Assembly: GCA_963812015.1 (NCBI GenBank)
Contig: CAWETI010000003.1
Location: 352,001-416,000 of the forward strand
DNA: 64,000 nt
Reading direction: 5' to 3'
Source: an uncultured delta proteobacterium
GTDB lineage: Bacteria; Desulfobacterota; Desulfobaccia; Desulfobaccales; 0-14-0-80-60-11
Position numbers and translations under genes: made by a program. Within the stretch, counting starts at the first letter, position 1; each line of letters begins with the position of its first letter. The notes beneath the pieces were generated by a model that did no database searches, was not told where the DNA came from, and saw only the letters and a program-made list of their open reading frames with translations. Shown piece after piece: positions 7,760 to 9,565 of the stretch.

Positions 7760-7875
7760 TCCGGTGGCCATAGCGCAGGGGTCACACCCGATCCCATCCC
7801 GAACTCGGTAGTTAAGCCCTGCTACGCCGATGATACTACGTGGGTGACTGCGTGGGAAAGTAGGACGCCGCCGGA
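7760..7875 (+). rRNA. rrf: 5S rRNA (complete copy)
   Basis: TCCGGTGGC...GCCGCCGGA helix I, CCCATCCCGAAC loop, position after 23S. Confidence 0.97.
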
Positions 7876-7889
7876 TTTATTTTCCTAGC

Positions 7890-7922
7890 AACCCCGCCTC
7901 TTGATGGAGGCGGGGTTTTTTT
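7890..7922 (+). terminator. Intrinsic terminator of rRNA operon
   Basis: AACCCCGCCTC/GAGGCGGGGTT hairpin followed by T-tract. Confidence 0.9.
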
Positions 7923-7987
7923 ATTTGACAAATATCCATATCTCTGTTAGCAGAGGAAAAAAGGGGAAATCTAAAATCTATTAAAAA

Positions 7988-8785
7988 ATGCAAGAAAAGA
8001 GCATGAATGCTCAAAAAGAGTTTTCAAAATTTGAGGAGGCATCAACATACGCTAAAGAGCTTGCGAGACAGCTATATTCATCTGTTTCTGTTCGTAGAAT
8101 AGAGACGGGATGTGTAGTCACGCACCAATGTGCTCCAGATCAGAGTTTGGACCCACCAAATACCATAAGACATGAACCCGTCAAGTTACCTGAAAAAACC
8201 GAGAGATCTATAGAGGTTTATAAGAGAGATAAATGGTGGTTTGTAGAGGGGTCTGAAGGGCGATTTTCTACCGAAGAACAGGCTAATAAGGTGGCGGATG
8301 TAATTCGCCGGTGCCAGTCGGGAAAGACAACTGGGTCGCCTGCCACAGTTGCCGGGAACACCACCAAACAGAGTGGGCAGGGTACTGAAAAAAATTTATC
8401 AAGATTTGAGGAGGAATCGGCATACTCAAGCACAGAAGTTGCGAGAAAACTAAGGAAACCAAAAAAGTCCCCACGTCAAAAAGCTACTAAAGTTCCCGAT
8501 AAGATTATTTCCTCAATTCCTACGCAACCTCACCGAACCAGACCCATTCAAACGAAAAGATCGGAAGATTTCCTGTGCATTGATTGTGGAGGATTAATTT
8601 TTCAGGCTCGTGTTGAAGCCATCCCCAATGTGCAGAGATGCACTAAATGTCAAAGTCTGTTTGAAAGTCGAGACCCATCTATTTTTAAAAGGAGTGTGGA
8701 CGAAGGTTTAGCGGGAACCCGTGATGATAACAAGAAGATGCGGGCCCGCCAATGGGGCGATATGCAACGGCGCCGCCGCGAATGA
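7988..8785 (+). CDS. Protein with C-terminal TraR/DksA-type C4 zinc finger
   Basis: CIDCGGLIFQARVEAIPNVQRCTKC matches CxxC-x17-CxxC TraR/DksA finger; lower GC than host genes. Confidence 0.75.
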   Translation: MQEKSMNAQKEFSKFEEASTYAKELARQLYSSVSVRRIETGCVVTHQCAPDQSLDPPNTIRHEPVKLPEKTERSIEVYKRDKWWFVEGSEGRFSTEEQANKVADVIRRCQSGKTTGSPATVAGNTTKQSGQGTEKNLSRFEEESAYSSTEVARKLRKPKKSPRQKATKVPDKIISSIPTQPHRTRPIQTKRSEDFLCIDCGGLIFQARVEAIPNVQRCTKCQSLFESRDPSIFKRSVDEGLAGTRDDNKKMRARQWGDMQRRRRE

Positions 8786-8810
8786 TCTTTTCCCATATCA
8801 ATTAGTAGTA

Positions 8811-8968
8811 AGCGCAGGGTGGACACTACTCACCCGATCCCATCCCGAACTCGCTCGTTAAGCCCTGCTACGCCGATGATACTCCGTGGGTGACTGCGTG
8901 GGAAAGTAGGACGTCGCCGGATTTATTTTCCTAGCAACCCCGCCTCTTGATGGAGGCGGGGTTTTTTT
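8811..8968 (+). pseudogene. 5'-truncated 5S rRNA copy 2 with duplicated rrn terminator
   Basis: 8831-8968 aligns to 7785-7922 with 4 substitutions by eye; 5' strand of helix I missing. Confidence 0.92.
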
Positions 8969-9014
8969 TCTCTACATTCAGGGATGATTTGGTATAAAGA
9001 AATCAGAGGGTAAG

Positions 9015-9224
9015 GTGATGAAATTTACTGTGGAATCCGATCAGGAAGAAGATGGCCGCTGGCTGGCGGAGGTGCTGGAGCTTCCCGGGGTGATGGTCTA
9101 TGGCCAGACCAAGCAGGAAGCCTTGGCCAAGGCCCAGGCCTTGGCCTTGCGGGTGTTGGCCGAGCGCCTGGAACATGGCGAGATGCTGGCCGAACCCATC
9201 AATATTTTGTTTGCCGCGGCATGA
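9015..9224 (+). CDS. hicB: HicB-family antitoxin (short, no DNA-binding domain)
   Basis: EEDGRWLAEVLELPGVMVYGQTKQEALAKA HicB signature; ATGA overlap with next gene. Confidence 0.85.
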   Translation: MMKFTVESDQEEDGRWLAEVLELPGVMVYGQTKQEALAKAQALALRVLAERLEHGEMLAEPINILFAAA

Positions 9225-9433
9225 GTAGCTGGCGAGCCACCAAAGCAAGACGGGTATTGGCGGCTTTGCAAAGATTGGGGTGGCAGGTTAAGCGTGGTAC
9301 TGGTTCACATAAAACGTTATCCCGGCCCGGCTGGCCGGATACGGTCTTTGCCTTTCATGACGCCGAGGAGATCAGCCCGCGTATGCTCGCTCGCATTGCC
9401 AAAGTGACCGGCCTAAGACCTGAAGATCTATAA
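9221..9433 (+). CDS. hicA: HicA-family mRNA interferase toxin
   Basis: LQRLGW...GSHKTL motif, 70 aa, coupled to hicB. Confidence 0.88.
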   Translation: MSSWRATKARRVLAALQRLGWQVKRGTGSHKTLSRPGWPDTVFAFHDAEEISPRMLARIAKVTGLRPEDL

Positions 9434-9434
9434 G

Positions 9435-9521
9435 CGATCCCATCCCGAACTCGCTCGTTAAGCCCTGCTACGCCGATGATCCTCCGTGGGTGACTGCGTG
9501 GGAAACTAGGACGCCGCCGGA
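9435..9521 (+). pseudogene. 5'-truncated 5S rRNA copy 3
   Basis: Aligns to 7789-7875 with 5 substitutions by eye; starts 1 nt after hicA stop. Confidence 0.92.
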
Positions 9522-9536
9522 GTTTAATTCCGGCCC

Positions 9537-9565
9537 AAGCCCGGGTTGGCCAATCCGGGCTTTTT
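9537..9565 (+). terminator. Intrinsic terminator after 5S copy 3
   Basis: AAGCCCGGGTTGGCCAATCCGGGCTTTTT hairpin with T-tract; unrelated to the terminator at 7890. Confidence 0.75.

Follow-up and report, generated by a model that had tools for sequence, protein, structure and literature searches.

Cassette arrays bounded by partial 5S rRNA gene copies behind the rrn operon of the order Desulfobaccales

Rows of small gene cassettes separated by partial copies of the 5S rRNA gene lie directly behind the rRNA (rrn) operon in genomes of the bacterial order Desulfobaccales. The array described here was detected in an uncultured delta proteobacterium (GenBank assembly GCA_963812015.1), in a stretch of 64,000 nucleotides (nt) referred to as the window (contig CAWETI010000003.1, positions 352,001 to 416,000 of the forward strand). 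Such 5S-bounded arrays are real and occur across the order. They consist of modular units in variable order, the gain of a unit is accompanied by a duplication of the repeat, the breakpoints between related arrays are scattered, the repeats are mosaic, and no integrase gene was found in the fetched loci. The original prediction, made from the sequence of the window, had named a recombinase acting in trans or homologous recombination as the mechanism. The data favour the latter, and homologous recombination at the 5S-derived direct repeats probably drives the gain and loss of cassettes.

Structure of the array in the window

The source genome (G000; 3.96 Mb in 6 contigs) has a single rrn operon, which the window carries. 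The array is anchored by the intact 5S rRNA gene (rrf, 7760..7876; Rfam RF00001, 109.8 bits) and, like all array features given below, lies on the plus strand; a BLAST search of the G000 assembly revealed no second intact 5S gene. Terminator A, a hairpin with a T run, follows at 7890..7922, and a TTGACA box stands at 7925, directly past the T run. Unit 1 (7926..8810), with a GC content of 45% against 56% for the window, consists of an AT-rich leader and an open reading frame (ORF) of 265 amino acids (aa; 7988-8785) with a C-terminal DksA/TraR C4 zinc finger (Pfam, E 1.1e-6). The partial 5S copy 2 (8811..8922) comprises positions 13-21 of the gene (8811-8819), an insertion and positions 26-117 (8831-8922), with 4 substitutions. 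The spacer and terminator A behind it (8923..8968) are the same as those behind rrf in 46 of 46 nt. Over 8831-8968, copy 2 has 4 mismatches to copy 1 in 138 sites, and the two share an identical tract of 54 nt. The next unit opens with a 68-aa ORF (9018..9224) that is weakly HicB-like (DUF7387, 5e-4; PF15919, 0.046) and begins cassette family F1; it is followed by a 70-aa HicA toxin ORF (9221..9433; PF07927, E 3.8e-12, over the cut-off). As judged from these matches, the predicted pair has the HicAB type II toxin–antitoxin (TA) layout, with HicA adjoining a HicB-like partner. Copy 3 (9435..9521) covers 5S positions 30-116 with 5 substitutions in 87 sites, and its first 46 nt (9435-9480) are identical to copy 2. 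Terminator B (9537..9568) ends the array before host DNA. A terminator search placed A at 7890-7917 and 8936-8963 and B at 9537-9562, and Rfam also scores degenerate 5S sequences at 8801-8922 and 9404-9518 (two matches).

This order of 5S, terminator A, zinc finger, copy 2, hicBA, copy 3 and terminator B had been predicted, and its coordinates are borne out by Rfam, Pfam and BLAST. The predicted tight packing of the cargo is found as well, hicA ending at 9433, 1 nt before copy 3, and three substitutions are confirmed as common to both partial copies and absent from the intact gene, as had been stated (49 G>C, 51 A>C and 79 A>C in 5S numbering). The copies do lack the 5' strand of helix I, with the correction that copy 2 keeps the 9 further bases at 8811-8819.

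An assembly artefact can be ruled out by identical short-read contigs, by arrays in relatives and by arrays in the single-contig genomes G035 and G039. At 100% identity, contigs of run X1 cover 7524-8944 and 9451-10400, and those of run X2 cover 9302-9452 and 9436-9726. The junction between terminator and hicB (8945-9301) has no identical contig, and the matching junction is present in several relatives, G013 and G004 among them. The contigs of run X1 leave the hicBA unit (8955-9439) uncovered while its flanks are covered, and the contig of unit 1 runs unbroken through both shared stretches. Because no contig joins across this gap, it is not used as evidence of excision. The tmRNA region of G000 was found twice (C3:1901 and C5:25265), in line with a contamination figure of 5.7%.

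Distribution across the order and the phylum

With a 5S-plus-terminator query, matches were obtained in 64 of the order's 83 genomes (36 of 51 plus 28 of 32), and loci were fetched from 61 of these 64, G031, G088 and G090 being left out. In 45 loci an intact 5S gene is followed by 1.5 kb or more of sequence, and 42 of these contain a 5'-truncated 5S-plus-terminator copy; the three remaining loci carry decayed remnants (G047 and G069) or none (G064). A profile search yielded 144 partial copies, spread over 56 genomes and without exception on the rrn strand. These copy counts leave out L090, L091, L130 and L131 (divergent second rrn operons of G007 and G015), the edge fragment L126, and L088 and L114, which have no copy and were kept in the count of 42 of 45. 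Further arrays were found on 17 metagenome contigs. When the region behind rrf is compared among relatives, the cassettes vary across the order.

In a sample of 121 genomes of the phylum, 88 of which had a 5S match, several degenerate copies per contig were found outside the order only in G196, with a strict filter that also missed half of the copies of G001. With the genome's own 5S as the query, five extra copies were found in G196, one in G169 and a weak one in G108. These loci (L120, 1859-17873, in G196; L122 in G169; L123 in G108) represent another family of the phylum. In L120 the degenerate 5S copies extend over 16 kb behind rrf and are accompanied by MNT-HEPN, ankyrin and genes of no assigned function; no integrase was found in the 23 ORFs scanned in the three loci.

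Locus L048 (1832-12964) of the single-contig genome G039 has a second full 5S gene 9.4 kb after the first, preceded by sequence resembling the end of 23S, and a helicase-nuclease gene and insertion sequence (IS) elements lie between the two.

Cargo of the arrays

The 122 inter-copy units (150-6000 nt) have a median length of 568 nt and a median GC content of 48%. Seventy-four of them belong to 12 recurring families. All members scanned in these families are type II TA pairs, namely HicAB (three layouts), YefM-YoeB, YafQ, RelE/ParE, HigBA, BrnTA and DUF4160-DUF2442. With 12 further units carrying TA domains, 86 of 122 units (about 70%) are TA by our reading of the Pfam tables, a tally in which short members of six big families in later loci were not Pfam-scanned. 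The other units (about 30%) carry TIR, AbiU2 HEPN, NucS, HNH, DUF4062 or exonuclease-BRCT genes or genes of no assigned function. The last unit of L040 (G007, 5211-6164) is a gene of the metallo-beta-lactamase fold (PF00753), a general fold that does not imply resistance.

Units align end to end, from the terminator to the next copy, while their order and number differ across genera and both families. The central prediction, that 5S-derived repeats bound small, variable, integrase-free cassettes, thus holds among relatives, in which units are gained, lost and reordered. Family F1, to which hicBA of the window belongs, is present in 16 genomes. Units of different genera are up to 94, 91 and 90% identical, and host stretches of other genera are 67-87% identical to G000, which points to transfer. 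The best match still comes from a congener in 21 of 31 testable units. Some units are compound, with at least two modules and no detected copy between them. In L034, L031, L040, L069, L072 and L074, unrelated cargos have in common the final 45-70 nt leading up to the partial copy, which suggests that new units arise via cargo replacement within an old unit. IS transposases and a group II intron reverse transcriptase (RT) sit in two large units; in L042 (G025, 11.9-16.4 kb) this RT and a DDE transposase lie within the first unit after rrf.

The zinc-finger unit of the window was found in none of the 82 other genomes of the order, and pieces about 97% identical to it occur in short-read runs X3 and X6 of two other studies, the two small-share runs on which the analysis drew. 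Its ORF has few homologues (10), often shorter than the window ORF, and an Atlas search with the unit gave low-score DksA/TraR leads only. The ORF contains an internal 41-nt duplication (8010-8050 versus 8385-8425, 80% identity). The position of a DksA/TraR-type finger adjoining an rrn operon is suggestive.

Truncation, mosaicism and breakpoints of the repeats

The 5' end of a copy tracks the family of the preceding cassette, with median columns of 8 for F2, 7 for F8, 11 for F6, 16 for F3, 26 for F1 and 28 for F5; the family effect is supported by a Kruskal test (p 1.7e-4, 59 copies), which overstates it because copies and genomes are related. Truncation points span profile columns 2-100. Among arrays that share at least 300 nt at 95% identity or more, seven breakpoints were located at about columns 27, 59, 80, 101, 132, 136 and 162; all lie at different places, from column 27 to the T run. 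They were read from BLAST ends, where the first mismatch only bounds the crossover; n is 7, and the counts are not independent. A conserved crossover point, as the original prediction implied, is not supported.

The 5S body tracks the host. Of the 78 copies that are informative in a comparison with congeners, 60 are closer to their own rrf and 16 to that of a congener, and 2 are ties. The share of the own allele is 0.46 in columns 1-30, 0.57-0.72 in columns 31-116 and 0.49 in the terminator. Terminators resemble each other more closely if the same cassette follows them (0.818 versus 0.778). Of 114 copies, 15 (from 11 genomes) have the variant at positions 49 and 51 seen in the window copies, and none of 47 intact genes has it; its confinement to copies indicates that copies also exchange with each other. 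A displaced 3' fragment, as left by islands in tRNA genes, is likewise not supported: the shared substitutions occur in none of the 47 intact 5S genes and yet in copies from 11 genomes, and truncation points and breakpoints vary as described above. In 26 arrays the 3' segment of the first copy is nearer to the host 5S than that of the last in 19 cases versus 5, with 2 ties. A strict age gradient along the array was considered and rejected, the trend over the whole copy being weak (16 versus 9 of 25 arrays).

The gain of a unit is seen in a filled and empty pair. G068 and G069 share 4.96 kb at 97% identity, and G068 has an extra unit of 1098 nt followed by a near-perfect copy of 5S positions 27-117 plus the terminator. 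G069 contains a decayed cassette and is not a fully empty site; it is empty for unit F13 only. In a second case, a unit behind rrf in G077 equals a unit behind a partial copy in G035 (97%), and the identity begins at about column 101, inside 5S. Inserts longer than 15 nt are carried by 76 of the 144 copies.

The last point of the original prediction on the repeats was that terminator B may be the ancestral rrn end. The last copy before host DNA is B-type in six relatives (G001, G003, G004, G011, G014 and G027), as that view expects; B-type terminators also occur in mid-array and after intact 5S genes, and the last copies of genus g9 are A-type, which speaks against it.

Probable homologous recombination between 5S-derived repeats

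The mobile unit would consist of the 3' part of 5S with its terminator, the cargo, and a 5'-truncated 5S body. Between such direct repeats of about 90-140 nt, the general recombination system of the host could cut a unit out or take a new one in, be it circular or linear DNA from a relative, with the crossover anywhere in the shared 5S and terminator sequence. An insertion at rrf would keep rrf intact and add one truncated copy. The truncated 5' end would be fixed once, at the first illegitimate joining of a cargo to a 5S copy, and would then move with the cargo, while repeated crossovers would replace the 5S body by host-type sequence. The terminator would move with the downstream cargo, insulate it against rrn read-through and, in some families, give it a -35 box. 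TA cargo may be enriched because the loss of a unit through repeat recombination would poison the cell. Dependence on RecA, circles, the route of uptake or transfer, promoter activity and addiction are parts of this proposal that we infer. In G000, ComEC and DprA look intact.

Tandem accretion by a site-specific recombinase acting in trans, in which the copies would be att sites in 5S and the cassettes non-autonomous or decayed integrative elements, is an unlikely explanation. The layout is that of tandem accretion on a stable-RNA gene (PMC5704250), the first copies tend to be younger, and 5S columns 96-116 are the most host-like segment (0.72). G000 also contains recombinase matches, 24 of the tyrosine and 2 of the serine type, all of them outside the window. 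However, no integrase was found in any of the 122 units or their flanks, in a search limited to loci of mostly fragmented assemblies rather than the whole genomes of relatives. Likewise, no tyrosine recombinase turned up when fetched loci were translated in six frames or when 209 ORFs were scanned with Pfam. Ordinary islands of G000 leave tRNA fragments; the 11 that lie no more than 120 kb from the gene concerned stop, without exception, exactly at the 3' end of the tRNA (10 of them are 94-100% identical), unlike the 5S copies, which extend through the terminator and are ragged at the 5' end. The breakpoints also scatter over seven places, albeit in a small sample. Patterns for a phage-borne 5S att site gave 0, 5 and 0 viral contigs, and the five were chance matches of 20-32 nt; 5S motifs on viral contigs are thus not beyond chance. 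Among 10 of the 78 matches of a plasmid search, there were only partial hits on 5S-like sequence of an unrelated kind, and none of them covered more than 80% of the query. A tyrosine recombinase gene split over two frames lies at C2:1181141-1181880 of G000, and the ORF after it resembles an IS91-type transposase in its motif.

A possible contribution of the terminator to a promoter was evaluated from its position relative to the units. TTGA is found in the hairpin of 97 of 119 terminators before units, 38 of which have TAnnnT 16-18 nt later, against 25 of 47 and 6 of 47, respectively, for terminators before host DNA. The geometry TTGAnn-16/18-TAnnnT spanning the terminator is present in 9 of 10 units of F3, 7 of 9 of F6, 3 of 3 of F12 and 0 of 16 of F1; none of 85 terminator-like sites of G000, used as a control, shows it. 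With moderate support, the terminator loop is thus predicted to supply the -35 box in several families. A consensus promoter scan of 7700-9950 gave no plus-strand promoter.

Several points weigh against the proposal. Shifted spacers give the same geometry in 1, 23, 6, 7, 4 and 16 of 97 terminators (23 at 13-15 and 16 at 28-30), against 38 of 97 at 16-18, and this partly positive control is why the support for the predicted split promoter is moderate; moreover, the loop -35 geometry occurs in neither window cassette. The copies are often just 80-90% identical to rrf and studded with hairpins, which leaves shorter stretches of perfect homology. Their likeness to the host could partly reflect exchange among close kin, and kinship makes the site counts, like the p value above, overstate the evidence. 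ComEC and DprA are common in control genomes (10 and 11 of 14, respectively), and some of the 24 tyrosine recombinases of G000 are not tied to a tRNA island. The first joining of a new cargo to a 5S copy is a postulate of the proposal, as are circles and a role of RecA.

In a rival explanation, units would originate as retro-copies, in which an RT copies the pre-5S RNA from the terminator and switches to the 3' end of an mRNA, the chimera then being inserted after rrf. This is extremely improbable. The intact 3' ends with terminator, the ragged 5' ends, the stop codons near the copy and the cargo nearly always on the rrn strand are all as it expects, but units include untranscribed promoter DNA, the substitutions show no adenine-specific bias (0.156 per site for A and 0.166 for T, 105 copies), and the single RT seen is that of the group II intron within the G025 unit. 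The same lack of adenine bias excludes mutagenesis of the kind seen in diversity-generating retroelements.

Ectopic units and REP-like hairpins

Copies also lie behind host genes, far from any rrn operon, at nine loci in seven genomes. At the G010 site, the two flanking genes are adjacent and free of 5S pieces in four congeners, and at the G024 site in six. About 1.55 kb stands in place of about 0.47 kb of host intergenic DNA in G010, and about 2.1 kb in place of about 0.18 kb in G024; neither has a duplicated core. The G010 unit belongs to the same TIR family as the unit after rrf in G003. Replacements of this sort look like imprecise capture of array fragments and not like integrase action, although in these binned contigs misassembly is possible.

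A second variable site was noticed after bioA in loci L149-L161 (genus g9 and G000 relatives): a short conserved motif lies past the stop of the bioA-like aminotransferase gene in 9 of 13 loci, followed by unrelated AT-rich DNA in each genome, which in G068 includes a 3' fragment of 5S.

Repetitive extragenic palindromic (REP) sequences and their REP-associated tyrosine transposases (RAYTs) form systems in which short palindromes are tied to a Y1 transposase. G000 encodes a Y1 transposase (PF01797, weak) between inverted REP-like hairpins (C3:650076-650595), which together we take to be such a system. The hairpin motif occurs 59 times on one strand of G000, against 8-12 times in shuffled sequences. 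A RAYT, as an HUH enzyme, might act on hairpins in the copies and drive excision and insertion, including that at REP-rich ectopic sites, but this is quite doubtful. The motif, which also forms the inverted pair flanking the transposase, lies inside 60 of 144 partial copies and no intact gene, one breakpoint falls within a hairpin, the ectopic array of G078 starts and that of G024 ends at one, and the empty site of G012 is rich in hairpins. On the other hand, neither the window copies nor the fresh G068 copy contain such a hairpin, 5 of the 7 breakpoints lie away from hairpins, and the left junctions of G010 and G024 are not clean hairpin crossovers; the hairpins may merely accumulate in neutral DNA.

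It is very unlikely that the locus is only a hot spot of gene swapping, with the 5S copies as debris that plays no role in mobility. Many copies are decayed, some units are compound, and the closing copies of G069 and G047 are almost gone, as this explanation would have it. Against it stand the exact unit ends kept across genera, the fresh near-perfect duplication beside the extra G068 unit, the G077 and G035 units behind rrf and a partial copy, respectively, with identity starting inside 5S, and the 5S fragments that accompany units to ectopic sites.

Other features of the window

The 16S gene (2653-4213), tRNA-Ile and tRNA-Ala, and the 23S gene (4676-7689) precede rrf. Upstream of the operon, two AT-rich ORFs (31-1089), one of them weakly HEPN-like (RiboL-PSP-HEPN, E 2e-4), are a possible defence islet. 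Past terminator B, a REP-like hairpin of the same family as those flanking the Y1 transposase of G000 lies at 9571..9597 (no strand assigned). Ten bases equal to the 5' end of 5S lie at 9628-9637, 100 nt past the terminator, and may be a chance match; a similar motif is present at the left junction of the G010 ectopic unit. AT-rich, tandem-like 9-nt repeats (9683-9726) precede a DUF192 gene.

Relation to known systems

A close likeness is with the promoter early stem-loop (PeSL) elements of T4-like phages, in which small variable genes lie between repeated terminator/promoter elements, insertions and deletions occur at the repeats, and mini-circles have been shown (PMC2839356, PMC4122927). The 5S array likewise has small variable genes, repeats that may combine a terminator with a promoter part, gene insertions and deletions at repeats between close relatives, and no dedicated integrase identified. 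However, its repeat is a relic of an rRNA gene on a cellular chromosome, of which one copy is essential, its cargo is mostly TA, and its predicted promoter part is a -35 box only, in some families. Moreover, a T4-like early promoter in a phage hyperplastic region is characteristic of PeSL, whereas the 5S array sits at a chromosomal rrn operon. It thus works like a PeSL array but is no member of that class.

Cis-mobilizable elements (CIMEs) are decayed integrative and conjugative or integrative and mobilizable elements with attL and attR derived from a site-specific integrase, and they accrete in tandem at the 3' ends of tRNA, tmRNA or other genes (PMC5704250). The 5S array resembles them as an integrase-free row of units between partial copies of a target gene that is restored. 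It differs in that no autonomous member was found, its ends are ragged, the repeat includes a terminator, the units are 0.4-1.7 kb long, and the target is 5S. Instead of the fixed att core and constant crossover of CIMEs, it shows seven breakpoints at seven places, though the number is small.

Sedentary chromosomal integrons contain promoter-bearing TA cassettes that would punish excision (PMC13108822, PMC13638679). The 5S array shares with them same-strand, single-module cassettes, variable order, host-associated repeats and TA enrichment; unlike them, it lacks IntI and attC and has 1-10 units, each with its own terminator. None of the 26 recombinase matches of G000 exceeds the cut-off of the IntI model (TIGR02249; best 122 bits versus 265). 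The core motif of attC consists of the complementary sequences RYYYAAC and GTTRRRY; such cores were found in 2 of 144 copies and in none in the window, and assignment to the integrons was rejected. As for REP/RAYT systems, the likeness lies in the Y1-tied palindromes in 60 of 144 copies, which ride along in the 5S repeats, or at most assist them, and are missing from the window copies. Because IntI, attC, a fixed core and a phage element were all not found, the array is assigned to no known class. No description of 5S-bounded cassette arrays was found in the literature searched, in which subscription journals are mostly missing.

Perspectives

Tentatively, and with less confidence than homologous recombination itself, the arrays may represent a general, integrase-free platform that captures genes at rRNA gene tails. 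Its repeat would be under selection as homology arm, insulator and split promoter, TA and defence genes would be traded across genera, new arrays would be seeded elsewhere in the chromosome, and such platforms would have arisen in several phyla. Arrays of this kind would be missed because the 3' end of rrn operons is usually broken in short-read assemblies and neither integrase nor attC flags them. In a whole bacterial order, an essential rRNA gene serves as the docking site of an integron-like array with no integrase in sight. With about 30% of its units carrying defence-like or unassigned genes, the array is a list of candidate anti-phage genes, and it makes it possible to test cleanly whether TA addiction is enough to keep cassettes in place between repeats that recombine.

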